A stretch of 64,000 nt of DNA, taken from positions 75,347 through 139,346 of the forward strand of contig JAEDDP010000001.1 of the NCBI GenBank assembly GCA_016297965.1, given 5' to 3'. Positions 47,817 through 62,937 of the stretch are shown here, piece after piece. A program made the position numbers and the translations under genes. Below the pieces are notes generated by a model that saw nothing but the letters and a program-made list of their open reading frames with translations, did not search any database and was not told where the DNA came from. Within the stretch, counting starts at the first letter, position 1. The number at the start of each line of letters is the position of its first letter. Origin of the DNA: Alphaproteobacteria bacterium. Its GTDB lineage: Bacteria > Pseudomonadota > Alphaproteobacteria > Rs-D84 > CACZYB01.

Positions 47817-49256
47817 ATGAAAATTTCTAAATTTAAAAATTATAGGAAAAGTAATGGTGGAGCTATATTGTTTCAAGTTCTTTTGGGGCTTGGACTTATG
47901 GTTATTATGTCGCCGATTATTTTTAATCAGATAAAGAAGTATAATGAGGAAATCCAACGTGAAGAAGTTATTTCATCTATGGAAAAGCTTCAAAAGGCGG
48001 TAAGTTCGTTTGTCGTTTTTGAAAAGGATACGGGAAATATTCCATCGGGGCTTACGTGTTGGAAGGATACCTCCGGTTGTCCGACAAGTGCAGAAGTTGG
48101 TGGTGCAAGTATGCCGGTGCAGACAAAGAAAATGAAAAGTTTTTTATCCGATTATTTGGGAAATGGCAGTGGTTCAATTGAAGATGAAAATGGTTTTGGA
48201 CAGGAATATTCCTTTGCCACATATAAAAATGGTGATGAGATAGAAGCGGTTGTTATTGCAAGTTGTAAGACCCAGAAATGTATTGATGATTTAACTCTTA
48301 ATGGTATTGGGCAATTTTTGTTTGATAAGGGTGCGGTTATTGCTTCGGATGGTGTGTTGTTAAGTGACCTTTCAATGTCAAATAATTTAAAGGGAATCGT
48401 GGATGCAATGATTACTTCGTCTGGAAGTGGAGCCTTAGTTATGTTTGTAAGTGATGCCTTCTTTTCATCAGATTTCTTGCATATTGCGGAAATGCCAGGG
48501 GAAACATCAAAGGCGATATTGTTTAATACAATGATTGTTGATTTGGATATGAATAGGCATAACATAAATAATGTTGCGAATCTTTATGGAACAACGTTGA
48601 ATATTGTGTCTTCAAGCAATGTTGGTGTTGTATCCCTTTCCGATATTGTGTTTAAATCAAATGTTGATGTGAATAATTTTGTTGAATACAAGAATACGAC
48701 TGGGATTAGTGGTGTATCAACTTTACCTTTTGGTGCGAAAAAGGAATCTTCGGGTGGTGATATATACCTTAATAATTTTGATGTTGAAAATACTTCATCA
48801 ACAGCAAGTTTTGATAAAATAAATATTGATGTTGGGGATTTAACGACTTCGGAAATAGAGGCGGATAATTATGTCGTTTTGGGTAATACAACGGTTAATG
48901 ATTGGTCCAATATGTCAATTTACCAAATGACCGCAAATACAATGAATTCGGTTGGAAATCTTCCGGATGAATTTTCAACGATAACCCTTAATGATGTTGG
49001 TACAGCAAAGGACAGCTTTGTTTATGTCGGTTCGTATAATGCGTCGGAAAATAGGTATTTGCCAGACAGTTTGATGATTTTGAATTTATCCGGAATATCG
49101 GAGGTGAAGGATATTTGTTATATGTCGGGGCCATCAAAGGTTTGTTTGTCAACGGAAGTTAAAAACCTTGTGACTGCGTTAAAAAATGCGTTGTCGTGTT
49201 ATTTGAAATACAGAGGTACCACGATTGAAGGGGGCGGAAGTTATACATGTCTTTAA
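47817..49256 (+). CDS. large pilin-like protein 1 (class-III-signal-like N-terminus, 479 aa)
   Basis: MKISKFKNYRKSNGG|AILFQ followed by a hydrophobic helix VLLGLGLMVIM; Q rather than E at +5. S/T/N/G-rich body. Confidence 0.4.
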   Translation: MKISKFKNYRKSNGGAILFQVLLGLGLMVIMSPIIFNQIKKYNEEIQREEVISSMEKLQKAVSSFVVFEKDTGNIPSGLTCWKDTSGCPTSAEVGGASMPVQTKKMKSFLSDYLGNGSGSIEDENGFGQEYSFATYKNGDEIEAVVIASCKTQKCIDDLTLNGIGQFLFDKGAVIASDGVLLSDLSMSNNLKGIVDAMITSSGSGALVMFVSDAFFSSDFLHIAEMPGETSKAILFNTMIVDLDMNRHNINNVANLYGTTLNIVSSSNVGVVSLSDIVFKSNVDVNNFVEYKNTTGISGVSTLPFGAKKESSGGDIYLNNFDVENTSSTASFDKINIDVGDLTTSEIEADNYVVLGNTTVNDWSNMSIYQMTANTMNSVGNLPDEFSTITLNDVGTAKDSFVYVGSYNASENRYLPDSLMILNLSGISEVKDICYMSGPSKVCLSTEVKNLVTALKNALSCYLKYRGTTIEGGGSYTCL

Positions 49257-50626
49257 AAAACAGGTTTAAAAAATTTAAAAATGTTTGTGGTGTGTCTTTG
49301 CTTGAAATAGTATTGGCACTTGGAATTATGGCGGTTATTACTCCGGTTGTAATGAAGCTTGTTTTTAAAGATTTGTCGGATGTTAAATATTTGAATATTT
49401 CCAAACAGTTGAAACAGTTTATAAAATCGTTGTCGGCGTATGCTTCCACAAAGCGGGAAGATTGGGCGATAAACAGTTTTGGTAATATAACAAAGGCAAA
49501 TTTGGCATCGTACGGTCTTGAAGATACGGTTGATAGCCAAATCCTTGATAATGTTTCTATTCGTTATACAAAGGATGCGGACAGTAAGGTTGTTGTTTAT
49601 GCAGTTATAAATATGAATTCGTTCCCGCTGGATGTGGTATCGTTTAAAAAAACGTTGATGTTTGTTGGTGATAATATTGGGTATACACTATCGGACAGTT
49701 GTGGTTCGTGTACGACAAAGTCGTGTGTGTGTGGAATAAATGGTGATTGGGGTACAACCTATGCTGAGGTAACTGGTGGCGAGGGAACTTTTTCAGATTC
49801 CGATTTAATCGCGGTTGTTCGTATAGATGATACCTTGATTGAAAATGAATATTCTTCAAATTTATTTTTATACAGGAACAGTCAGGGTGGAACGTCCGGT
49901 AATGTGATGGGACGTGATTTATCGCTTGGTGGTCATGATATTAAAAATATTAAGGATATTTATGTTAACAACCTTTTTGGAAAAAACGAATCCACACCAC
50001 TTATTACACTTAATGCAGACAATGGAGAATTTGATGGTTCAGTTAGTATCCTTAATGCAATAATTTTTGATGATGAGGCGGAATTGGAATTTAGTGATGG
50101 GGCATTTGTTTTTGCTCCGGAAATAAACTTTTTGGCGGATACATATTTGTATGAATTTAGTGCACCGAATGCAACATTGGCGCGCGCTCCCTCTTCAAAC
50201 AGCTATGCCTCCAAAATAGATGTGGATCGGTCGGTAAAGCTTGGGACCTTACAGGTGCAAAATTTGTCCTTTTCATCCCTTACAAATTCGGGATTGGTGA
50301 TAAATGATAATGAAACATCTTCTTCGGCTTCGTCGTTTATTGTTTCATCGCAATTAAAGGTGGATGTGCCAAATTTATCAATTGGGAACCTTCGGACAAA
50401 GGTTTTAACCGTGAATAATTATCCGATTTATTCAAACCTTGGCACGGCATCGTTTTCGTCGTCCGGTGGTGTTATGTCGTATTCAACGGTTCCAACGGTA
50501 GTTGTAAATAATATTCCGGGATCGTCCGCTGGGGTGAATATTTTTACAAAAATTCCCGAATTTTCAGAGGCGGTAGAGACTTTAACTACATCAATAAAAC
50601 AAAGAATGGCGGCAAGTGGAAATTAA
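49247..50626 (+). CDS. large pilin-like protein 2 (459 aa)
   Basis: MSLKNRFKKFKNVCG|VSLLE followed by IVLALGIMAV; Gly at -1 and Glu at +5. 10-nt overlap with the upstream gene. Confidence 0.5.
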   Translation: MSLKNRFKKFKNVCGVSLLEIVLALGIMAVITPVVMKLVFKDLSDVKYLNISKQLKQFIKSLSAYASTKREDWAINSFGNITKANLASYGLEDTVDSQILDNVSIRYTKDADSKVVVYAVINMNSFPLDVVSFKKTLMFVGDNIGYTLSDSCGSCTTKSCVCGINGDWGTTYAEVTGGEGTFSDSDLIAVVRIDDTLIENEYSSNLFLYRNSQGGTSGNVMGRDLSLGGHDIKNIKDIYVNNLFGKNESTPLITLNADNGEFDGSVSILNAIIFDDEAELEFSDGAFVFAPEINFLADTYLYEFSAPNATLARAPSSNSYASKIDVDRSVKLGTLQVQNLSFSSLTNSGLVINDNETSSSASSFIVSSQLKVDVPNLSIGNLRTKVLTVNNYPIYSNLGTASFSSSGGVMSYSTVPTVVVNNIPGSSAGVNIFTKIPEFSEAVETLTTSIKQRMAASGN

Positions 50627-52022
50627 AATGTTTAAAAATTTGAAAAATGATAATGGTGGAATCTTATTGGAAGTTTTGCTTATGCTTGCAATATTGATGG
50701 TTATATTTCCAATTATGCAACGGGATATAAAAAAGCGGACGGACAATATTCGTAATCAAATGGTTGTGAAGGATTTGATGAAATTAAAGGGGGCCGTTGA
50801 AACTTATTTAAAGAAAAAGCCGACGTTTGAAACGGCGATTGTGGATATTCCATTTTCTGATTTGGTGGACAGCGGACTTCCAAAAAGTTTTGCAAAAAAG
50901 AATGTCTTGGATCAGGAATATAAGGTAAGGGTTAGGGTATCAAATGATGCCGATGGAAACCTTATCTATGATGCGATTGTTTTTGCTACCGGAAATGCCG
51001 AACTTTCGTCTATACGACTTCGTGATATTGTAAAGGATGCAAAGGGGTATGCCGGATATGTTGAAGATGGACTTATTTATGGTCCGGATTGGCAGTTGTC
51101 GGTTGCACCGTGGAATTCATCGGGGGATATTGATGAAACCTCCATTGTTGTAAAAACCGGATTTTCAAAAAAGGATTATAAGTATGTGTCAAGGGTTCCG
51201 GGGATTGGTTCGTCAACGATGGAAACGAATCTTTATATGAATCTTAATGGTATTTATAATGTGAATGATATGTTTGTAAGTGATAAGGCGGAATTTGGTT
51301 CGGCGGTGTTTGATGGAACGACAAAGGTTTCCGATGTGTCCGTTGCGGAAAATATGCATTTGCAGGCGCATTTGAATATCGGAAAGTCGTTTAACTTTCC
51401 AAACGGGCTTGATATGAAACGTATGTCATACAGTGATGAGTATGCAGCATCAGTATTGATTGATACTTTGTTGCATTTTAAGGGAAGTTTGTATTTATCA
51501 ACATTGGAAACAAATATCCTTCGTTCGGCAACGGCGACTTCGTTGTTGGTAAGTACGGCCTCAACTTCACCTACGTATATGAAGATTGTGAACTATCTTT
51601 CATTTATGCCGGAGGCAAATTTAAGTTCGGTTTTATCCCTTATGGAGGTTTATGTGAATTCGGTTCTTGTTGATAAAACTTCTCTTACTTCCTCCTATGG
51701 TGTGAAGTTTGGTTCTATTGAAAGTATGGCAAACAGGGCGTTGTATTTTATGAATTCAAAATCGGCATCGTTAAATGATGTTATTGTGCGGGATGTGAAT
51801 AACTGGCTTATCCAAAATCAAAAGAAAATTGGTGGTATTGATATTACCGAAACAACCCCAATAAGTGTTGTGTTAAGGGGTATTTTTTATGAATATGGTG
51901 ATGTGTATAAGTTGTTTTACAATGCGTACCCAGCAAATAATGCTCCTATGCCATATTGGTATTATAACCTTTATAAACGTTGCGAATATAATGAATGTTC
52001 GGATACCGGATGGCATAAGTAG
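50616..52022 (+). CDS. large pilin-like protein 3 (468 aa)
   Basis: M(EIKM)FKNLKNDNG|GILLE followed by VLLMLAILMVIF; Glu at +5. 11-nt overlap with the upstream gene. Confidence 0.5.
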   Translation: MEIKMFKNLKNDNGGILLEVLLMLAILMVIFPIMQRDIKKRTDNIRNQMVVKDLMKLKGAVETYLKKKPTFETAIVDIPFSDLVDSGLPKSFAKKNVLDQEYKVRVRVSNDADGNLIYDAIVFATGNAELSSIRLRDIVKDAKGYAGYVEDGLIYGPDWQLSVAPWNSSGDIDETSIVVKTGFSKKDYKYVSRVPGIGSSTMETNLYMNLNGIYNVNDMFVSDKAEFGSAVFDGTTKVSDVSVAENMHLQAHLNIGKSFNFPNGLDMKRMSYSDEYAASVLIDTLLHFKGSLYLSTLETNILRSATATSLLVSTASTSPTYMKIVNYLSFMPEANLSSVLSLMEVYVNSVLVDKTSLTSSYGVKFGSIESMANRALYFMNSKSASLNDVIVRDVNNWLIQNQKKIGGIDITETTPISVVLRGIFYEYGDVYKLFYNAYPANNAPMPYWYYNLYKRCEYNECSDTGWHK

Positions 52023-53470: not shown

Positions 53471-54352
53471 TTAAACCATCTTTTTTAATTCTTTGTTAAT
53501 TGTTAAAACAGCACTTATTTTTGCGATTATACCAGCAATGATTGGAATTATCAATACATACAAATAAATGTATGCCGGAAATTGGAATTGTCCGATTGTT
53601 TCATTGGTTAGATATGATGCAGATATTTTTATTACAAAAATTGTAAAGCAAGAAAAAAGGTATCCAATGCTTCCGCCAAGAAGGGCAAGCTTCATCATTT
53701 GTCGCGAAAATTGGGTGGTAATGTATTTGTTTGTTGCACCAACCATATGCATAATATTTATTACCTTTTTATTTATATTTAATCCAGATTTTGTGGCATA
53801 GCAAATTGTAAGTCCGGTTGTTGTAAGGATAAGGATTATTATTATCCCAAGAAGTGTTTGTATTGCGGAAATGCTTGCCTTAAAATCGTAAATCCATTTA
53901 TCAAATGTTTCAAATTTTATGTTTTTGGAATAGTTGGCAATTTCTTTTTTAAGGGCGGTTTGGTTAAGTGGAATTATATCTGAAACCTCCACATTGATAA
54001 TTCGTGGAAGTGGTAAATCGGTTGTAAAATCACCAAGCCATGGTTTAAGAAGTTCGGATGTTTCTTTGGTGGATACAATGTAATGTGATTTTATGCCGGG
54101 GGTTTGTTTGAGTATGGTTGTTATATTTTTTATTCGGTCATCAAGCTCCTTTTGAGGCTTTTGGGATGTCATATCTGGTAAAACCTGAATTGTTATTTTG
54201 TTTGCCATATACGAACTCCATTCGCTTGTTATATTACTACTTATCAATGCGGTTGCAAAAGTTATTGATGCAAGGAAAACCATAAATGCAGTTATGAATG
54301 GTAAAAATCCCTTATTTAAATCAGTTTTGAATGCAATGTCTGTTTTTAACAT
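53471..54352 (-). CDS. ftsX: cell-division ABC transporter permease FtsX
   Basis: 4-TM FtsX-like topology immediately downstream of ftsE. Confidence 0.7.
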   Translation of the reverse strand: MLKTDIAFKTDLNKGFLPFITAFMVFLASITFATALISSNITSEWSSYMANKITIQVLPDMTSQKPQKELDDRIKNITTILKQTPGIKSHYIVSTKETSELLKPWLGDFTTDLPLPRIINVEVSDIIPLNQTALKKEIANYSKNIKFETFDKWIYDFKASISAIQTLLGIIIILILTTTGLTICYATKSGLNINKKVINIMHMVGATNKYITTQFSRQMMKLALLGGSIGYLFSCFTIFVIKISASYLTNETIGQFQFPAYIYLYVLIIPIIAGIIAKISAVLTINKELKKMV

Positions 54353-54356
54353 AATT

Positions 54357-55046
54357 TTATTCCTTTGTTAGGTATCCATCTTGGAGATGAAGAACAGGAA
54401 AGTTAAATTGTTTTATAAGGTTTGTACTGTGGGTGGCAATAATTACGGTGGTTCCCATCTTGTTTAATTCCAAAAATAAAAACAAAAGCTTTTTTGCCAT
54501 TTCGTCGTCAACATTGCCGGTTGGTTCGTCGGCGATAAGGATTTCTGGATTGTTTATCACCGCACGGGCGATTGCGACACGTTGTTGTTGTCCACCCGAA
54601 AGAAGTTTTGGTTTTGTATTTATAAAGCTTTTAAGTCCAACCCATTCAATCAATTCGGGAACATGGGCTTGGATATATTTTTCACTTTTGCCGGCAATTC
54701 GCAATGGAAGTGCGACATTGTCAAGTACGGATAGATGGTCAAGAAGATGATAATCCTGAAATACGATGCCAATTTTTCGGCGGATATGTGCCATATCGTA
54801 TTGTTTGATATTATCAACATCGTGGCCGAAAATACGAACCTTTCCACGGGTTGGTTTATGGGCAAGATGAAGCAGTTTTAATAGGGTCGTTTTACCGGCA
54901 CCGCTGGCTCCGGTTAAAAAATAAAAATCACCCGCCTTTAATTCAAGGTTTATATCCTTTAATACCTCAGGTCCGGCATTATATCTTAATCCAACATTTT
55001 GCAAACTTATTATTGGTTTGTTGTTGGGATTGTTTGATTTTTGCAT
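54357..55046 (-). CDS. ftsE: cell-division ATP-binding protein FtsE
   Basis: Walker A GASGAGKTT, signature LSGGQQQRVAIARA, Walker B ILIADEPT. Confidence 0.85.
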   Translation of the reverse strand: MQKSNNPNNKPIISLQNVGLRYNAGPEVLKDINLELKAGDFYFLTGASGAGKTTLLKLLHLAHKPTRGKVRIFGHDVDNIKQYDMAHIRRKIGIVFQDYHLLDHLSVLDNVALPLRIAGKSEKYIQAHVPELIEWVGLKSFINTKPKLLSGGQQQRVAIARAVINNPEILIADEPTGNVDDEMAKKLLFLFLELNKMGTTVIIATHSTNLIKQFNFPVLHLQDGYLTKE

Positions 55047-55175
55047 TTATTCCTCCGTGTAATCCTATGATACAAAATTTTTACAAAAATACAAATATTT
55101 TATTTTAATGAATTGAAAATTTAATATATTTGTTTTATACTCCGATTTATACTAAGTATTTTATAAGAGGTTAAA

Positions 55176-55880
55176 ATGATTATTCAGTGTCCTAAATGTA
55201 AAACAAATTTTGAAGTTGATGATAATGCTTTGAAAAATGGTGAAATGAAGTTTCAATGTGCCGAATGTGCATACGTTTGGACCGTTAATATTTTAAAGCA
55301 AGAAAAAAAACGTGAAAGTGTGGAAGATAACTCCGTACAATCGGAGGAACAAAAGCTTCCTTCGTGTCTTGTGGATGAGAGGGAAGAAAAGGAGGTCAAA
55401 TCTTCGGTTGTATCAATTAAAAAAACACTTTTGAATGTCTTTTCAATGAAAAATGTTTTGCTTTTCCTTCTTGCAATGATCTTTTTCGGTGTTGTGTTTT
55501 TGGTTGCTGGGTTTGTGTCTTCATCTGATGTATCAAATTCGGGAAAAAGTATTTTTGATGTTTCCAGAAAATCGGATAGTAAGAAGACAGATTTGTATAT
55601 TGAGATTGCAAAGCCACTTACTTTGGTAACAGAAGGAACAAATGATTATATTATTATTCGTGGTTTTATTTATAATCCATCAGATATTAGTGTTAGTATA
55701 CCAAAGCTTGTTATTCGTTTGAAAAATGCTGATAATCGTGTGCTTCAAGAACAGGAACGTGAAGTAGAAGTAAAACAGCTTTCTCCACTTGAAAAAACAG
55801 ATTTTATGTTTAAAGTGTTTAAGTTTTCATCGCAAGTGCGTAGTATAGAGGTTGATTTTATTGAACCTGATAAGATTTAA
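55176..55880 (+). CDS. MJ0042-type zinc-ribbon protein with a DUF3426-like C-terminal domain
   Basis: MIIQCPKCKTNFEVDD...FQCAECAYVW zinc ribbon, a TM segment, then a beta-rich domain. Confidence 0.6.
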   Translation: MIIQCPKCKTNFEVDDNALKNGEMKFQCAECAYVWTVNILKQEKKRESVEDNSVQSEEQKLPSCLVDEREEKEVKSSVVSIKKTLLNVFSMKNVLLFLLAMIFFGVVFLVAGFVSSSDVSNSGKSIFDVSRKSDSKKTDLYIEIAKPLTLVTEGTNDYIIIRGFIYNPSDISVSIPKLVIRLKNADNRVLQEQEREVEVKQLSPLEKTDFMFKVFKFSSQVRSIEVDFIEPDKI

Positions 55881-55895
55881 TAGAGGAGATGTATT

Positions 55896-56360
55896 TTGAG
55901 AAAAATATTTTTTGCCTTTTTGGGACTTTTCTTTTCAACGTCTGTTTTTGCCCAGTGGAGTAATTGGTTTAATGTGTCGGATCAACAATATAAGATTTAT
56001 ATTGTAAGTGATGACAGTTTTAATGTGACACAGGGCTTTTATTTAACAAATTTTCCATGTTATGGTCGGTATAATCAGGAGTATTATAAAACGGTTGTCG
56101 GAAAAAATATGATAACATTATATTGTCTTCAACCACCAACTGAAATTTATTTAAGTTATATTACTCGTCCGATTGGTGCGTTTGTTTCCCGTAATACAAA
56201 GGCGGATGGTTTTATGGTTTGTCCGGTGGAAGTTCAAGGCAGTGTTGCAACAGGCGTTATCCCGCGGATGCAGGTAAATATTTCAGATTGTGCGAAAAAT
56301 GAAATAAATACAAAGGCAAATAAGGAAATTATTCAAGAATATGATGGTGTGGAATTATAA
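55896..56360 (+). CDS. secreted hypothetical protein (4 Cys)
   Basis: Signal peptide MRKIFFAFLGLFFSTSVFA. Confidence 0.35.
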   Translation: MRKIFFAFLGLFFSTSVFAQWSNWFNVSDQQYKIYIVSDDSFNVTQGFYLTNFPCYGRYNQEYYKTVVGKNMITLYCLQPPTEIYLSYITRPIGAFVSRNTKADGFMVCPVEVQGSVATGVIPRMQVNISDCAKNEINTKANKEIIQEYDGVEL

Positions 56361-57347
56361 ATGGAAAAAACTTTTAATTTAGTTGTTGATGAAGGCGAAA
56401 AAGGTTTAAGGCTTGATAAATGGCTTGCCTCTAAAATTGAGGGATGTTCACGTGTGAAAATTCAAAGACTTATAAAGTCGGGTTTTGTTTTGGATGCCAA
56501 TGATGAAGTTGTTGCGGACCAAAAGTTGGCGGTGAATGTTGGTGATGAATACAGTGTTCGTATTCCCGAAGATGAGGCTGTTTCAAGTGCAAAACCGGAA
56601 AATATCCCACTTGATATTTTATACGAAGATGATGACATTATTGTTGTAAATAAACCCGCTGGGATGGTGGTTCATCAGGGGGCCGGTGTAAGTTCGGGTA
56701 CATTGGTTAATGCACTTCTTTATCATTGCAACGGTCATCTTTCATCCATTGGTGCCGAAGCAGGACGTCAAGGTATTGTACACAGGCTTGATAAGGATAC
56801 AAGTGGTGCAATGCTTGCGTGCAAAACTGATGTGGCACATTTGGAAATGTATAAACAATTTGCAAATCATTCGGTAAAACGTGAATATTATGCCCTTCTT
56901 TGGGGAATACCGAATCCGGTAAGTGGTCGTATTGAAAAAAATATTGCACGGAATCCCCATTCAAGGCAGGAGATGACGGTGGTGGTTGATGGTGGAAAGC
57001 CAGCGATAACAAACTATGAAACTTTGACAGTGTTTAGTGGTTCAAAGTTTAAACCGCTTGCCCTTGTAAAATGTGTTTTGGAAACGGGGCGGACACATCA
57101 AATTCGTGTGCATATGGCATCTATTGGAACGCCGATTTTGGGTGACGTGGTTTATGGAAATCCAAGTCGTCATATTACCCAGGTTGAAAATGAAGATGTT
57201 CGTTCATTGTTGATGGGAATTTCACGGCAAATGCTTCACAGTAAAAATATTGAATTTATTCATCCGATTACAAAGGAAAAGATGAAGTTTGAAACGAAGC
57301 TTCCTGAGGATATGCAAAAAGTTATAAATTTTTTTAAAGGGGAATAA
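56361..57347 (+). CDS. rluD: RluA-family 23S rRNA pseudouridine synthase (RluD-like)
   Basis: N-terminal S4 domain, catalytic HRLDKDTSGAML, C-terminal HQIRVH. Confidence 0.8.
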   Translation: MEKTFNLVVDEGEKGLRLDKWLASKIEGCSRVKIQRLIKSGFVLDANDEVVADQKLAVNVGDEYSVRIPEDEAVSSAKPENIPLDILYEDDDIIVVNKPAGMVVHQGAGVSSGTLVNALLYHCNGHLSSIGAEAGRQGIVHRLDKDTSGAMLACKTDVAHLEMYKQFANHSVKREYYALLWGIPNPVSGRIEKNIARNPHSRQEMTVVVDGGKPAITNYETLTVFSGSKFKPLALVKCVLETGRTHQIRVHMASIGTPILGDVVYGNPSRHITQVENEDVRSLLMGISRQMLHSKNIEFIHPITKEKMKFETKLPEDMQKVINFFKGE

Positions 57348-57350
57348 CAA

Positions 57351-58118
57351 ATGGAAATGGTACGAAAAATTGGAACTTTGGGTATAGATTTTTTAAAGTC
57401 TGTGTTTAAGTTTTTTTATTTTCTTATGCAAACTATACATAACTGGTTTACACCGCCATATTATCCAAAAATATTTTTTAAAAATGTAATTGAAATTGGT
57501 TTTTATTCGTTGCCGGTTGTTGCATTGACGGCTTTGTTTGCCGGTATGGTTTTGGCATTGCAAAGTTATTCCGGATTTTCAAGCTTTTCTGCCGAAGGGG
57601 CGGTTGCAACGGTGGTTGAAATTGCGATTACCAGAGAGCTTGGCCCTGTGTTCGCGGGACTTATGGTTGCGGGAAGAATTGGTGCAACTATGGCGGCAAG
57701 TATTGGTACTATGAAGGTGACCGAACAAATTGATGCCCTTAAAACTCTTTCTATGAATCCATTTAAATATATTGTATCGCCAAGGGTTTTGGCGGGAATT
57801 TGTATTATGCCGGTTCTTGTCCTTATTGCGGATATTATTGGCATTTTTGGTGGATTTATTGTAAGTGTTAATGAGCTTGGCTTTAATCCATTCGTTTATA
57901 TAAAGGATACCTATAACAGTATGAAAACTATTGATGCGGTTGTTGGTATTGCAAAGGGTGCAACATTTGGTGCCATTATTACATCTATGGGTTGTTATTA
58001 TGGTTATTATACCGAAGGTGGTGCGGATGGTGTTGGAAAGTCAACAACAAATGCGGTTGTGTATTCATCTATTTTGATACTTATTTCAAATTACATATTA
58101 ACGGCAATATTCTTTTAG
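57351..58118 (+). CDS. mlaE: phospholipid ABC transporter permease MlaE
   Basis: MlaE/Ttg2B family, with TRELGPVFAGLMVAGRIGA conserved region. Confidence 0.8.
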   Translation: MEMVRKIGTLGIDFLKSVFKFFYFLMQTIHNWFTPPYYPKIFFKNVIEIGFYSLPVVALTALFAGMVLALQSYSGFSSFSAEGAVATVVEIAITRELGPVFAGLMVAGRIGATMAASIGTMKVTEQIDALKTLSMNPFKYIVSPRVLAGICIMPVLVLIADIIGIFGGFIVSVNELGFNPFVYIKDTYNSMKTIDAVVGIAKGATFGAIITSMGCYYGYYTEGGADGVGKSTTNAVVYSSILILISNYILTAIFF

Positions 58119-58131
58119 GTAGGAGTGGCAA

Positions 58132-58884
58132 ATGGTTAAAAGGGAACCTGCAATAGAGCTTAAAAATGTATATAAATCGTTTGGGTCAAAGTATGTCCTT
58201 CGTGGTCTTGATTTAACGATATATAAGGGCGAATCGGTGGTTTTGCTTGGGCAATCGGGTATGGGAAAATCGGTAAGTATTCGTTTGATGCTTGGGCTTA
58301 TGGATGCAGACAGTGGAAGTATTAAAATCAATGGAAATGAAATAACCGATTTTTCCGAGGAAGAATTTTATCAAAATAACCGAAAAATTGGAATGCTTTT
58401 TCAAAACGGTGCGTTGTTTGATAGTATGACCGTTTGGGAAAATATTGCCTTTTCGTTGCTTAATGTGAAAAAGATAAATCCAGAGGAAGCAAGGAAAATT
58501 GCCATTGAAAAGTTGGCGGATGTTGGTTTGCCGGCAAAGGTTGCGAATATGATGCCTTCGGAACTTTCGGGTGGTATGAGAAAGCGAGTGGGTCTTGCCC
58601 GTGCGATTGCCGATAATCCGGAAATTATTTTCTTTGATGAACCGACGACTGGGCTTGATCCAATTATGTCAGATGTTATAAATAATTTGATTGTTCGGTG
58701 TGTTAAACAGTTGGGTGCTACGGCGTTGACTATTACACATGATATTCATTCAGCAAAAAAAATTGCAGACAGGATTGTAATGCTTTATGATGGAAAAATT
58801 ATTTGGGATGGAAAACCAGAGGATTTAAGTCATCCAAATAATGATTATGTTGAACATTTTGTAAAGGGAATATCCTTAGATTAA
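58132..58884 (+). CDS. mlaF: phospholipid ABC transporter ATP-binding protein MlaF
   Basis: Walker A GQSGMGKS, signature LSGGMRKRVGLARA, Walker B IIFFDEPT. Confidence 0.85.
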   Translation: MVKREPAIELKNVYKSFGSKYVLRGLDLTIYKGESVVLLGQSGMGKSVSIRLMLGLMDADSGSIKINGNEITDFSEEEFYQNNRKIGMLFQNGALFDSMTVWENIAFSLLNVKKINPEEARKIAIEKLADVGLPAKVANMMPSELSGGMRKRVGLARAIADNPEIIFFDEPTTGLDPIMSDVINNLIVRCVKQLGATALTITHDIHSAKKIADRIVMLYDGKIIWDGKPEDLSHPNNDYVEHFVKGISLD

Positions 58885-58896
58885 AAAAATAAAAAA

Positions 58897-58927
58897 TCCC
58901 CCAGTTTTTGGGGGAAATTTTTTTTAG
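58897..58927. terminator. bidirectional terminator
   Basis: CCCCCA-gttttt-TGGGGG followed by T8. Confidence 0.6.
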
Positions 58928-59295: not shown

Positions 59296-59444
59296 TTTTT
59301 CTCCAATTATTTGATTTTACGGTTTATATTTTATTGTATTGTATGATAATTCAAATAACAAGGAAAATATGCGGATTTTCTTTTGACTTGACAATTATAA
59401 ACTTAAATGTTATTTTGTCTAAATAAATAATAGGAGTGTGAAAT

Positions 59445-60611
59445 ATGTTTAAAAAGAAATTGAAAACAGATATTAACCCAGAGGCAATTTATATAAGACA
59501 GACAGGTTTGTATTTAAGCCTTATCCGTATGGGATTGTTTTTGTTTGGTATTTTTTTATTGATTGGTATTGTTTCAAGTCAGTTAAGGGTGATTTACAGT
59601 TCAAGTAAGATTTTGAATACCTTTATTTTATCGGTGTTTGTTTTTGGTGTGATTTTGAATTTTAAAAATACAATAGTTTTGCTTAATGATGCAAACTGGA
59701 TAAACGACTTTTTTGCGGGAAATGAAAGTGGAAAGGCGCCAAAAATAATTTCTCCGGTTGCCTTTTTGTTAAAGGAGCATAGAAAAAATTATCATCCATA
59801 TTTGGAGGCGGGTACTATGCGTACACTTCTTGATATTGTGGATGAAAGACTTAATGATTCAAAGGATTCAACATCATATTTTTCCGGTGTTTTAGTGTTC
59901 CTTGGGCTTCTTGGTACATTTTGGGGATTGCTTTTGACCATTGGTTCGTTTGGTGATATTGTGCGAAGCCTTAATGTAAATGATGGTAATATGATGGTTG
60001 TTTTTGAAAGCTTAAAGGTAAATATTGCAAAGCCATTGTCCGGAATGGGAACTGCGTTTTCAACATCATTGTTTGGATTGGGTGCATCGTTGATTTTGGG
60101 ATTTTTGCAACTTCAATCAACATTGGCACAGCACTTCTTTTATAATGAGTTAGAAGAAAATATGACAAGGTACACACGAATCGTTTCTGCAAGCTCGCTT
60201 GCCGAAGGGGATGGTTCAATTATTACATATCTTCAAGCAATGTTGGAACAAACTGCCGATAATATAAACATACTTCAAAAAACGGTTATGAAGTCGGTTG
60301 ATACGAATGCCGATGTTTCAAAAAAGATGGCCGTTATGGCAGAGGAAAGTTCAAAGCTTGCAAAGCAGATGCAAGAAAAGCTTAAAGTTATGGAACGTAT
60401 TTCGGTTGCACCGGAAAAACTTTATCCTGTACTTAATGATTTGGTTAAGATTTCAAAATCTGGGTTCGGTATGGATGACAGGACAAGAGACCATATAAAG
60501 GCGATTGATTTGGGACTTTCCGATATGTCGGACAAATTGTCGTCGGATATAAGGTTGCTTGCAAAAACTATTGCTATGACTGATGGTAAAAATAAGGTTG
60601 AAAAGAAATAG
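59445..60611 (+). CDS. MotA/TolQ/ExbB-family proton-channel protein with about 150-aa C-terminal coiled-coil tail
   Basis: Four TM segments. The conserved core YFSGVLVFLGLLGTFWGLLLTIG...AKPLSGMGTAFSTSLFGLGASLILGFLQLQ has the TolQ/ExbB/MotA pattern. 388 aa. Confidence 0.55.
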   Translation: MFKKKLKTDINPEAIYIRQTGLYLSLIRMGLFLFGIFLLIGIVSSQLRVIYSSSKILNTFILSVFVFGVILNFKNTIVLLNDANWINDFFAGNESGKAPKIISPVAFLLKEHRKNYHPYLEAGTMRTLLDIVDERLNDSKDSTSYFSGVLVFLGLLGTFWGLLLTIGSFGDIVRSLNVNDGNMMVVFESLKVNIAKPLSGMGTAFSTSLFGLGASLILGFLQLQSTLAQHFFYNELEENMTRYTRIVSASSLAEGDGSIITYLQAMLEQTADNINILQKTVMKSVDTNADVSKKMAVMAEESSKLAKQMQEKLKVMERISVAPEKLYPVLNDLVKISKSGFGMDDRTRDHIKAIDLGLSDMSDKLSSDIRLLAKTIAMTDGKNKVEKK

Positions 60612-60619
60612 GAGGAATT

Positions 60620-61003
60620 ATGAAAAAGCTTAATCCGTTTGTTTTCATTGCGGTTAATGGTGTATCCCTTGATAATTTAGGGTATTATGCACGGGCAATT
60701 ACCAAAGATGGGAAGGCGTATTTTTTGTGTGAATATGCAGGGAATCCGTATAATGAAATGTCATTTGAAAGATTCAAATCTTTGTTGACAGGAATGAGCT
60801 TGGATGATATTTATTCCCTTAAATCTAAAACTGTTAATGCGGATGTTGTTATCAATTTTATAGATGAAGAATTAAGAAGAAGACATAAGTCATTAAATAA
60901 GTCAAAACCAAAAATTGCAAAGAAATTAAAAAATAATAATGAAATTTGTTTGCCAAATGGTTCTGTTTTATTTAAGGCTTCGGAAATGAATAAAGGAAGG
61001 TAG
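60620..61003 (+). CDS. hypothetical protein (127 aa) between the MotA-like and MotB-like genes
   Basis: No motif recognised; the tight spacing suggests the same operon. Confidence 0.3.
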   Translation: MKKLNPFVFIAVNGVSLDNLGYYARAITKDGKAYFLCEYAGNPYNEMSFERFKSLLTGMSLDDIYSLKSKTVNADVVINFIDEELRRRHKSLNKSKPKIAKKLKNNNEICLPNGSVLFKASEMNKGR

Positions 61004-61116
61004 TGTTTTATTATGAATAAAAAGTTGATTTCTATAAATGGGGATGTGTTTACTTTTTCAGAAATGATTGAAAACAGAGTTCTAAAATTAAAAATGTTAA
61101 AGGAAAATAGCAGATA

Positions 61117-62187
61117 ATGTTAAGACGTAATTCTTCGGACAGTTCGGCTTCTTTGTGGCCATCGTTTATTGATGTGATGAGTAATTTACTTATCCTTATG
61201 ATTTTTATGGTGGTGATTTTTATGCTTTTGAATTTTGTTTCAAGCATTACAAATTCCGGTTCAAAGGATAAACGGATTGAAGAATTACAAAAAATAATTG
61301 CCGAAAAGGATAAGGTTAATCACGCCCTTATAAATAATGTTCGTGGTATAAAGCAGGATTTGGCAAAGGTGGAAGAAGTTAATAAAAACCAAGAATCCGA
61401 TATGCAGGAGCTTTACCAAACATTGGATATGACAAAGGACGAGTCAAAGAAAAAGGATATTAAAAACGAGCAGTTGAATACAAAGGTTGCCGAACTTAAT
61501 ATGCTTATTTTACAACTTGAAGGTGATATTATTAAAAAAGATAATGAAGTTATGGCATTGAAGAACAGTGAGGAAAACCTTAAATCCACAGTGTCAAAAC
61601 TTACGGGAGAAATGCAAAAGCTTAATCACGTTTTTGAATCCACAAATAAATATATTGCATGGCAAAAGGTGCAAATTGTTGAATTGGGTAAAAAGCTTAA
61701 TCGCGCCCTTGCCAATAAGACAGCAGAGCTTTTTAAGGTGCGTTCCACTTTCTTTGAGGAACTTTCCCTTGCACTTAAAGGAAATGAAAATTTTGTTATG
61801 GTTGGTGACAGATTTGTTATGCCATCGGAAGTCTTCTTTACCGCCGAATCGGCAGAAATTGGTGATGATGGAAAGGAAAAACTTAAAAACCTTGCAAAGG
61901 TGTTAAAGGATGCAATGGTTGCATTTCCGGATGATGTTGATTGGATTTTGCGTGTTGATGGACATACCGATATTACACCGGTAAGACCAAACAGCAAATA
62001 TAAATCAAATTGGGAACTTTCCGTTGCGCGTGCGGTTTCGGTTGTAAATTTCCTTATTTCTCAGGGTATTCCAGAAAACAGATTGGCGGCAACCGGATTT
62101 GGTGAATATCATCCACTTGTGAATGGACGGGATGTAAATTCCCTTCGCCGGAACAGACGTATTGAATTTAAGCTTACTGAAAAATAA
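61117..62187 (+). CDS. MotB/OmpA-like peptidoglycan-binding protein with N-terminal TM and about 180-aa coiled-coil linker
   Basis: TM LLILMIFMVVIFMLL, a long heptad-rich region, then the C-terminal OmpA/MotB domain ILRVDGHTDITPV...NWELSVARAVSVVNFLISQGIPENRLAATGFGEYHP. Confidence 0.6.
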   Translation: MLRRNSSDSSASLWPSFIDVMSNLLILMIFMVVIFMLLNFVSSITNSGSKDKRIEELQKIIAEKDKVNHALINNVRGIKQDLAKVEEVNKNQESDMQELYQTLDMTKDESKKKDIKNEQLNTKVAELNMLILQLEGDIIKKDNEVMALKNSEENLKSTVSKLTGEMQKLNHVFESTNKYIAWQKVQIVELGKKLNRALANKTAELFKVRSTFFEELSLALKGNENFVMVGDRFVMPSEVFFTAESAEIGDDGKEKLKNLAKVLKDAMVAFPDDVDWILRVDGHTDITPVRPNSKYKSNWELSVARAVSVVNFLISQGIPENRLAATGFGEYHPLVNGRDVNSLRRNRRIEFKLTEK

Positions 62188-62937
62188 TTAAAGTTTTTCG
62201 CGAAGAAGTTTAAGATCTTCCCAGGTTTTCTTTTTTGCCTCTATATTATTCAAAAGATAGTTAAGGGAAAATGTTGGCATTACATCAATATTTTCGTATT
62301 TGAACCATTTTCCACGAAGGGTGGTTATTGGCTCCTTTGTATTAAGGAGTATGTCCGCTGGGATACTTCCCATAGTAAGGATTATTTTTGGTTTTAAAAT
62401 TTCAATAAATTTAAGGGTAAATGGTTTTGATATTTCCATTTCCTCCTCTGTTGGGGTACGGTTTCCCGGTGCACGAAGGGGGCTTGCCGGAAAGGTAAAG
62501 GTATTTGTTTCAACAGATGAATTTATGGCAAGAAGAATCTTTTTTAAAAGTTCGCCTGTTGGACCGGATAATGGAATCCCGGTTCTGTCTTCATCGGAAT
62601 TTGGGGATTCCGTTATAACAAGAAGAGATGGATTTTTTACACCAATTCCCGTAATTGGATGTGTGGCGAATTTTGAGAGGGGATTAAGTTTGAAATCAAG
62701 GATTGATTGTTGAAGGGCATCAACCGTTGATATGTTTTGAAGTGCCTTTTTGGCTTCCTCACTTGCCTTTAAAATTGAGATATTTTTTTCGGTTGGTTGT
62801 TGTGGTGTGGATGTTTTTGCCACCGGAAATGCAAACGAATTATTTTCAAAAAAAACATAGGGCGAATCGTTATAAAATTCGTCAATGCCGGATTCTTTGT
62901 ATAATTTAAGGTTTGTAAGTTCTTCGTTTATTGTCAT
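62188..62937 (-). CDS. uracil-DNA glycosylase superfamily protein (family-4-like core with a non-canonical active-site motif)
   Basis: LLVITESPNSDEDRTGIPLSGPTGELLKKIL aligns to the family-4 GEAPG..E...G.PF.G..G.LL motif but has TESPN in place of GEAPG; N-terminal extension of about 80 aa. Confidence 0.5.
   Translation of the reverse strand: MTINEELTNLKLYKESGIDEFYNDSPYVFFENNSFAFPVAKTSTPQQPTEKNISILKASEEAKKALQNISTVDALQQSILDFKLNPLSKFATHPITGIGVKNPSLLVITESPNSDEDRTGIPLSGPTGELLKKILLAINSSVETNTFTFPASPLRAPGNRTPTEEEMEISKPFTLKFIEILKPKIILTMGSIPADILLNTKEPITTLRGKWFKYENIDVMPTFSLNYLLNNIEAKKKTWEDLKLLREKL

Follow-up and report, generated by a model that had tools for sequence, protein, structure and literature searches.

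A candidate non-flagellar, peptidoglycan-anchored motor gene pair of the A–PRK09039 family in Alphaproteobacteria

Ion-driven motors of the 5:2 class, among them flagellar stators, the Ton and Tol systems, gliding motors and Zorya, are the subject of a very active structural field. Here we describe a gene pair related to these motors at positions 59445-62187, on the + strand, of a 64,000 nucleotide (nt) stretch of the alphaproteobacterial contig JAEDDP010000001.1; this whole stretch is referred to below as the window. The upstream gene (gene 1) encodes a multi-pass membrane protein, the A subunit, and the downstream gene (gene 2) encodes a single-pass protein with a C-terminal OmpA domain, the B subunit. 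We consider it probable, at roughly 0.7, that the pair is a non-flagellar, peptidoglycan-anchored, ion-driven motor of the 5:2 class (MotAB/ExbBD/TolQR/ZorAB) and serves as an alphaproteobacterial housekeeping module.

A probable counterpart has been described in the acetic acid bacterium Komagataeibacter hansenii, which has no flagellar or pilus genes (PMC6315621, PMC6570709). The sole 'motA' of this species (348 amino acids (aa), four transmembrane (TM) segments) and its sole 'motB' (321 aa, one TM segment, C-terminal OmpA domain) are adjacent genes (Jacek et al. 2018, 2019; PMC6315621, PMC6570709). On overexpression of motA/motB the cells became about twice as long or filamentous, colony spreading rose threefold and the cellulose network became looser; C-terminal green fluorescent protein fusions localised to one pole in short cells and to both poles in long ones (PMC6315621, PMC6570709). 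The authors stated that the partner receiving the energy of K. hansenii MotAB is unknown (PMC6315621, PMC6570709). In another strain, disruption mutants proved viable and their cellulose was denser (PMC7347698). Translation of the published primers yields VTRPTTY at the N-terminus of MotA and EFRLTDR-stop at the C-terminus of MotB, and both fit the signatures of the family described below. Because these termini, the protein lengths, the topology and the presence of Acetobacteraceae in our locus set all agree, the K. hansenii proteins are probably orthologues of the window pair; this is likely, not proven.

Domain architecture and channel residues

The locus consists of four open reading frames (ORFs), as an earlier note on this DNA had reported, and all of them are on the + strand.

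59445..60611, + strand: A subunit (gene 1), 388 aa, of the MotA/ExbB/TolQ/ZorA superfamily, from its ORF, TM prediction, Pfam match and fold
60620..61003, + strand: X (ORF127), 127 aa, soluble, an ORF with its own Shine-Dalgarno sequence
61013..61117, + strand: micro-ORF of 34 codons, whose stop overlaps the gene 2 start
61117..62187, + strand: B subunit (gene 2), 356 aa, an ORF with one TM segment, a stalk helix and an OmpA domain

A and B are well beyond chance ORFs, with homologue matches down to E = 1e-240. The peptide previously quoted for the micro-ORF is right, but the length given with it (31 codons, ending at 61108) was wrong.

TM prediction gives A four hydrophobic helices (residues 25-43, 55-79, 148-166 and 203-221). 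The first 27 residues contain five Lys/Arg, the TM1-TM2 loop a single one. This positive-inside pattern is compatible with an N-in protein with four TM segments, which therefore places the C-terminal tail in the cytoplasm. The C-terminal 163 aa are predicted to be helical (258-284, 289-338 and 345-381), in agreement with the earlier description of a 4-TM core followed by a long tail. The cytoplasmic TM2-TM3 loop is about 65 aa. The recognisable core is TM3-TM4, and the match to Pfam MotA_ExbB is marginally over the gathering score (24.7 against 22.9 bits); the Sinorhizobium meliloti orthologue scores 23.9 bits.

Conservation in A was computed over 62 diverse homologues, and that of the A and B channel residues over 47-62 diverse sequences. 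The TM3 motif GLLGTFWGL is invariant. In the TM4 motif P..GMGTAFS the Pro, Gly, Met, Ala, Phe and Ser are invariant and the other two positions are at least 90% conserved. Thr158, Thr165 and Thr203 are invariant. Conservation extends to the tail, which carries the motifs YLQALLEQTA, G.GMDD.TR.HIRN and IRLLARTIA, and the N-terminus has the signature M(T/S)(R/K)Pxx(Y/F)LxRM. Nearly all members of the A family are 350-400 aa long, with a mean column identity of 55%, tail included.

Alignment of the A family with hhalign places GLLGTFWGL on the GLFGTVWG of Escherichia coli TolQ and ExbB; the probability for E. coli MotA is 9%. A Foldseek search with the AlphaFold2 model of A gave ZorA as the best match (8vvn_D, E = 0.013), followed by ExbB and TolQ chains. 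The PADLOC model ZorA1 matches A at E = 9.6e-14 over residues 142-310, with PADLOC matches lying within 142-374 at most, and the NCBIfam ZorA models score well under their cutoffs (17.5 vs 100 and 11 vs 190 bits). No MotA, TolQ, TolR, ExbB or ExbD model was matched in the NCBIfam scan. A is a divergent member of the MotA/ExbB/TolQ/ZorA superfamily.

B has a short cytoplasmic N-terminus, one TM segment (24-42) and then a disordered segment. Asp19, within the motif WPxF(V/I)D at the cytoplasmic end or start of the TM segment, is invariant. AlphaFold2 predicts a single uninterrupted helix from residue 77 to 220 (144 aa, approximately 21 nm) with a predicted local distance difference test (pLDDT) score of 80-90. 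The OmpA domain (Pfam, 240-347, E = 1.6e-14) lies in a MotB-type region at 227-355, and the order of one TM segment, long helix and OmpA domain is that given in the earlier note. This domain aligns with that of E. coli MotB by hhalign (probability 97%, E = 4.5e-11) and by profile is nearest to the solved domains of MotB, MotS and PomB (E = 1e-25 to 1e-20). ZorB (8vvn_B, E = 2e-8) is farther from B by profile than MotB (E = 1e-25); the PADLOC model ZorB3 matches B at E = 1.3e-27. The NCBIfam models for MotB, MotD and MotS match in the OmpA domain only, at 58-88 bits against cutoffs of 250-301, and so fall 170-230 bits short. E. coli TolR gave no alignment by hhalign (probability 1.4%). B is thus a wall-binding partner that bears the TM aspartate and has a helical stalk of unusual length, and the two proteins together form the atypical MotA/ExbB-like and MotB/OmpA-like pair that had been noticed.

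An alphaproteobacterial family and its local variation

The pair was called a candidate novel system in the earlier note, and this has to be revised. The alignment of B with the NCBIfam model NF006543 (PRK09039.1-2, 'peptidoglycan-binding protein') is end to end (E = 1.7e-81) and pairs residues 3-355 with positions 6-349 of the 350 in the profile. At 274.8 bits it stays under the equivalog cutoff of 305 bits, a cutoff that governs automatic naming and leaves the homology in no doubt; the Azospirillum orthologue passes it with 464.7 bits. B also shares 39% identity over 100% of its length with a Niveispirillum 'peptidoglycan -binding protein'. Its C-terminus, RIEFKLTEK, fits the broader form RIE(L/F)(K/R)LTxx of the family signature RIE(L/F)(K/R)LT(D/Q/E)R-stop, and RIELRLTDR ends B in nine loci. 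With an A gene upstream that carries the family motifs and tail, the TM aspartate, the C-terminus and the end-to-end homology of B, the window pair has the marks of the family in all but the equivalog score. It is a divergent, low-GC member of a huge, catalogued alphaproteobacterial A + PRK09039 family, one that is already modelled in NCBIfam, named by the Prokaryotic Genome Annotation Pipeline (PGAP) and handled in Komagataeibacter as 'MotAB'. The automatic names are inconsistent, ranging over 'flagellar motor protein MotA', 'chemotaxis protein MotB' and 'OmpA family protein'.

Homologues of A fall into more than 6,800 clusters at 90% identity, and a profile hidden Markov model (HMM) search covering 1.84 billion representatives gave 967 clusters at 50% identity with E <= 1e-30. 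For gene order we used 80 reference loci fetched from GTDB species representatives, which comprise Rhodospirillales, Acetobacteraceae, Kiloniellales, Kordiimonas, Thalassospira, Azospirillum and Hyphomicrobiales together with the gammaproteobacteria Dokdonella and Chiayiivirga; Sinorhizobium and a few Xanthomonadales are among the lineages that the loci span. B directly follows A in 74 of the 80 loci; the gap has a median of 11.5 nt, the two genes often overlap, and B measures 342 to 702 aa. In S. meliloti A and B are separated by 2 nt and lie between suhB and an ATP-binding cassette (ABC) exporter gene and rpmE. The conserved chromosomal neighbours of the pair are the genes for elongation factor P (EF-P) and inositol monophosphatase and thiE, the first two of them often upstream of A on the same strand, and there are no flagellar genes in the window or beside the pair in the 80 loci. 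The size and conservation of the family, the uniform length of A and the synteny shared across orders are characteristic of a housekeeping module passed on vertically rather than of a mobile or defence island.

In 49 of the 80 loci (e.g. L072:4840-5832) a further OmpA protein of about 330 aa is encoded directly upstream of A on the same strand, after the EF-P and inositol monophosphatase genes. Its features are a signal or anchor sequence, a long linker rich in Pro and Ala, and an OmpA domain at the C-terminus. In Rhodospirillales this protein could form a third component; neither the window nor S. meliloti has it.

Three records call for comment on their labels. Two GTDB bins labelled Patescibacteria and Mycobacteriaceae (L003 and L012) hold the gene pair on short contigs, probably through bin contamination. 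A PLSDB record (L085, CP090106.1) is titled 'plasmid pSymB', yet it is 3.72 Mb long and carries rpmE, purEK, thiE and suhB; it appears to be a mislabelled S. meliloti chromosome.

The window differs from the usual arrangement in the distance between A and B, which is about 11 nt in the family and here is a 505-nt insert holding X and the micro-ORF. X starts 8 nt past the A stop codon behind a strong Shine-Dalgarno sequence, AGGAGG, which directly follows that stop. The relatives of the window belong to a clade of low-GC metagenome-assembled genomes, gut- or termite-associated and labelled Alphaproteobacteria or Rickettsiales, in which the slot between A and B (occupied by X-type and Y-type ORFs) is filled as follows.

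L086: A identity to the window 85%; between A and B, X (127 aa) and Y (118 aa)
L087: A identity 84%; between A and B, X (127 aa) and Y (117 aa)
L088: A identity 82%; between A and B, none
L081: A identity 81%; between A and B, Y (120 aa)
L082: A identity 76%; between A and B, X (120 aa) and Y (255 aa, tandem duplication)
L089: A identity 65%; between A and B, two unrelated ORFs (131 and 214 aa)
L083: A identity 48%; between A and B, none

A slot with zero to two small genes is seen only in this gut-associated clade. The small ORFs had been put forward as possible parts of the system, to be judged by their conservation in relatives; X/Y-type ORFs are absent from all 74 distant loci and from two relatives within the clade. 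X and Y have no TM segment, signal peptide or known domain and no Pfam, PHROG, phage or defence match of note, and a word-indexed search found no homologue of X beyond its own species. The identity of X to the ORF in the same slot is 48% in L086, 25% in L087 and 32% in L082, where A retains 85%, 84% and 76% and B, in the first two, 79% and 80%. X is lineage-specific and, judged by these identities, evolves far faster than A and B. In L082 the gene in the Y slot (L082:11539-12306) encodes 255 aa, in which the Y unit (about 118 aa) is present twice in tandem, so the slot evolves through duplication as well as loss.

The micro-ORF occupies the position of Y, which is 117-118 aa in the closest relatives, and still has a start codon preceded by a Shine-Dalgarno sequence. 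At its end, TAATG, the TAA stop runs into the start codon of gene 2, just as the stop of Y overlaps the start of B in L086. Because the slot, the Shine-Dalgarno sequence, the start and the stop overlap are all retained, an in-frame internal deletion is the simplest history, and the micro-ORF may be an internally deleted relic of Y that preserves translational coupling. In a comparison with the Y family the micro-ORF shows no significant similarity (E = 2, rank 9 among 1,402 small ORFs), and the deletion therefore remains conjectural. X and Y are co-transcribed accessories, not core parts, of the A-B operon, and the accessory-gene slot is the sole local peculiarity of the window's locus.

The other features next to the pair are the following.

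59388..59416, + strand: promoter-like site (TTGACA, a 17-nt spacer with TG, TATTTT), 10/12 consensus matches; a consensus match only
62188-62937, - strand: family-4 uracil-DNA glycosylase gene, with a zero-nt gap to the B stop codon
62937-63692, - strand: CpoB-like coiled-coil/tetratricopeptide repeat gene, a weak match (TIGR02795, 33 bits vs a cutoff of 90)

The promoter-like site is 29 nt upstream of the start of gene 1, and a bidirectional terminator (58897-58915) lies between the A-B operon and the upstream mlaEF genes. The genes around the pair in the window are mlaEF, a lipoprotein gene, the uracil-DNA glycosylase gene and the CpoB-like gene. A cpoB gene had been placed divergently just downstream of the pair. 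The next gene is in fact that for the uracil-DNA glycosylase, which lies on the - strand and is therefore convergent with gene 2; the CpoB-like gene, whose product has 25% identity to E. coli CpoB across 197 aa, lies beyond it and is likewise convergent with the A-B pair. The proposed link to cpoB and Tol-Pal holds in the closest relatives and fails further out: the order B, uracil-DNA glycosylase, CpoB-like is preserved in L081, L086, L087 and L088 and is then lost. A gene for a Pal-like OmpA lipoprotein comes next after the CpoB-like gene in L081 and L088.

Upstream, the window contains at 53471-58884 ftsEX (- strand), a zinc-ribbon protein gene, a 154-aa secreted ORF without a family, an rluD-like gene and mlaE/mlaF, a block that is also found ahead of A in L086, L087 and L088. 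Farther away (47817-52022, + strand) are three tandem ORFs of 479, 459 and 468 aa without a Pfam match. Their mutual similarity is confined to the N-termini, which resemble prepilin (class III) signal sequences (e.g. ...CGVSLLEIVLALGIM and NGGILLEVLLMLAIL). These ORFs may encode unusually large pilin- or pseudopilin-like proteins.

Proposed mechanism and alternative explanations

The domain architecture, the conserved channel residues, the coupling of the two genes in an operon, the size and distribution of the family and its position outside the known subfamilies are all shown by the data, whereas the 5:2 stoichiometry, the rotation, the tail as output and the role in division or polarity are inferred. 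In keeping with the 5:2 superfamily, A matches Pfam MotA_ExbB, at a marginal score, and the adjacent single-pass B carries a TM aspartate. In the mechanism that we propose, two B chains would place their Asp-bearing TM helices within a ring of A chains, presumably five in number. The periplasmic part of B would form a parallel, dimeric coiled-coil stalk, about 21 nm long here and very variable in length across the family, and the terminal MotB-like OmpA domains would fix B to the cell wall. Protons would pass along a path made up of B Asp19 and the conserved Thr residues of TM3 and TM4 of A, and their flow at the A-B interface would make the A ring rotate about the axle that B, fixed to the wall, provides. 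The output element would be the strongly conserved tail of A, with its three helices in the cytoplasm, which would act on a partner. In the gut-associated clade, zero to two small, soluble, fast-diverging genes (X and Y) would have been acquired between A and B. Because the K. hansenii data point to a polar role that affects cell length or separation, the output would most likely concern the envelope, division or polarity rather than motility, import or phage defence.

Several observations weigh against this mechanism. The 5:2 stoichiometry and the rotation are extrapolated from remote relatives. The similarity of A to solved motors is weak: the A family profile has no match at E <= 1 among PDB sequences, its hhalign alignment to E. 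coli TolQ or ExbB spans just 23-24 columns, and the Foldseek matches of A have E-values of 0.013 or worse with template-modelling scores of 0.3-0.5. The tail of A is modelled at low confidence (pLDDT 50-68), and there is no conserved cytoplasmic partner in the gene neighbourhoods. The total length of B ranges from 296 to 702 aa across the family, which is hard to square with a simple vertical spacer from inner membrane to wall, and the proposed mechanism leaves the two-fold variation in stalk length unexplained. Finally, the K. hansenii orthology is drawn from lengths, topology and 7-residue termini, not full sequences, and the phenotypes in that species come mainly from overexpression of membrane proteins, which can disturb division non-specifically.

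Under the automatic annotation often given to such genes, the pair would be the flagellar stator (MotAB/PomAB-type) of its organism. A does equal MotA in its number of TM segments, four, B has a TM aspartate followed by an OmpA domain of MotB type, and several sources use these names. However, no NCBIfam MotA model matches A, hhalign gives the low MotA probability reported above, and the TM2-TM3 loop is too short for the torque-generating domain of MotA. The MotB, MotD and MotS models reach the OmpA domain and no further, far below their cutoffs, and the 144-residue helix of B is found in no flagellar MotB. The surroundings of the pair, in the window and in the 80 loci, are likewise free of flagellar genes. 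S. meliloti has separate flagellar motA, motB and motC genes, and its copy of the pair, between suhB and rpmE, sits apart from them. The probable orthologues in K. hansenii occur in a species without flagellar genes (PMC6570709, PMC6315621). A flagellar stator is thus barely credible. A Tol/Ton-like force transducer, in which the pair would energise a process at the outer membrane or the wall directly by way of the B stalk, B would be a fused TolR/TolA/Pal-like arm and the periplasmic coiled coil rather than the A tail would be the working part, has more in its favour, although we still judge it unlikely. The TM3 motif of A is the ExbB/TolQ motif, B resembles TolA domain II in having a long periplasmic stalk, the gene directly upstream in 49 of 80 loci encodes an OmpA-domain protein whose linker is rich in Pro and Ala, a CpoB-like gene is near the pair in the closest relatives, and the cell-length phenotype in K. 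hansenii resembles that of TolQR overexpression (PMC6570709). Against this, no NCBIfam TolQ, TolR, ExbB or ExbD model is matched and no alignment with TolR was obtained; the TM segments of A number four, not three as in TolQ and ExbB, and B has an OmpA domain that TolR and ExbD lack. That domain binds the wall and not outer-membrane proteins, so the stalk would be tethered at both ends. A force-transducing arm would also leave the A tail, the most distinctive conserved feature, unexplained, and the linkage to Tol-Pal genes is not kept beyond close relatives. The earlier note had rejected the flagellar, TolQR and ExbBD assignments, and our comparisons bear it out. It had allowed that the pair might prove to be the sole MotAB of a flagellated genome or a canonical TolQ/TolR-Pal fusion; at the level of the family neither holds, given the probable orthologues in aflagellate K. 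hansenii (PMC6570709), the 23-24 columns shared with TolQ and ExbB and the unaligned TolR.

A Zorya-like anti-phage system would make the pair a ZorAB-type sensor motor, with X and Y as lineage-specific effectors or adaptors in place of ZorC/D/E. ZorA and ZorB are indeed the closest characterised relatives by HMM (PADLOC) and by fold (ZorA 8vvn as the top Foldseek match), so that the earlier choice of Zorya as the nearest analogy stands, as does the reported absence of ZorC/D/E. X and Y evolve faster than A and B, and their copy number of 0 to 2, with one duplication, is a pattern common in conflict genes. The NCBIfam ZorA cutoffs are missed, however, the PADLOC matches extend no further than the TM core and the initial portion of the tail, and the tail of A is about 160 aa against several hundred in ZorA. 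There is no nuclease or helicase effector nearby and no adjacent ZorC/ZorD, ZorE or ZorF/G, and X and the micro-ORF have no Zor match. X and Y are missing from nearly all family members and have no defence, phage or PHROG match of note. The conserved housekeeping synteny, uniform length and high conservation of the family are the reverse of what defence systems show, with their patchy occurrence in islands, and we hold a Zorya-like function to be very unlikely. The pair might instead be a passive tether or spacer between inner membrane and wall, its MotA/ExbB-like fold being a degenerate relic. The very weak similarity to active motors would fit this, and the variable stalk length suggests a structural role. 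A degenerate fold is not expected to keep invariant ion-path residues, however, and B Asp19, A Thr158, Thr165 and Thr203 and the GLLGTFWGL motif are all invariant, which makes a relic highly improbable.

An ion-driven, wall-anchored motor remains our preferred explanation. A bolder version of it would make the family a fourth major core-genome class of 5:2 rotary motor, an 'inside-out Zorya' with a dimeric periplasmic coiled-coil axle and a short pentameric cytoplasmic tail, coupling the proton-motive force (PMF) to the wall, division or polarity at the poles, with the hypervariable X and Y of the gut clade, translated along with A and B, as exchangeable cytoplasmic adaptors on the A tail that retarget or gate the output. 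We offer this as speculation that is rather unlikely to hold.

The family is large, vertically conserved in a major bacterial class and present in aflagellate species, and its architecture is unlike that of any solved motor. Marking it as distinct prevents false inferences of motility in genome surveys. Identification of the partner could reveal a new PMF-dependent mechanism of the envelope or of polarity in Alphaproteobacteria. To that question the window adds one thing only, a naturally occurring variant in which a slot for accessory genes separates A from B.

Comparison with known systems

Type I Zorya (PDB 8qyd, 8vvn) is the best characterised relative by HMM and fold, and it shares with the window pair a peptidoglycan-anchored B and an A with a helical C-terminal cytoplasmic tail. 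In Zorya, however, A carries the long coiled coil, on the cytoplasmic side, whereas in the window pair B carries it, in the periplasm. The window pair belongs to the core genome and is without ZorC/D/E, and it is not in a defence island as Zorya is.

MotAB and PomAB resemble the pair in the 4-TM A and in a B with a TM aspartate and a MotB-type OmpA domain. They differ in that MotB has a short plug and linker in place of the 144-residue helix of B, and in that the window pair lacks both the torque-generating domain and a flagellar context.

With TolQR-TolA-Pal and ExbBD-TonB the pair has in common the motif GL(L/F)GT(F/V)WG in the A-type subunit and a possible role in the envelope or in division. 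In contrast to A, TolQ and ExbB have three TM segments, and TolR and ExbD have neither an OmpA domain nor a coiled coil; the window pair for its part is without a TolA- or TonB-like partner.

The MotAB pair of K. hansenii is like the window pair in its adjacent genes, in an A of about 350 aa with four TM segments and in a B with one TM segment and a C-terminal OmpA domain. Its MotB is shorter (321 aa), and no intervening small ORFs have been reported there, in contrast with the occupied slot between A and B in the window.

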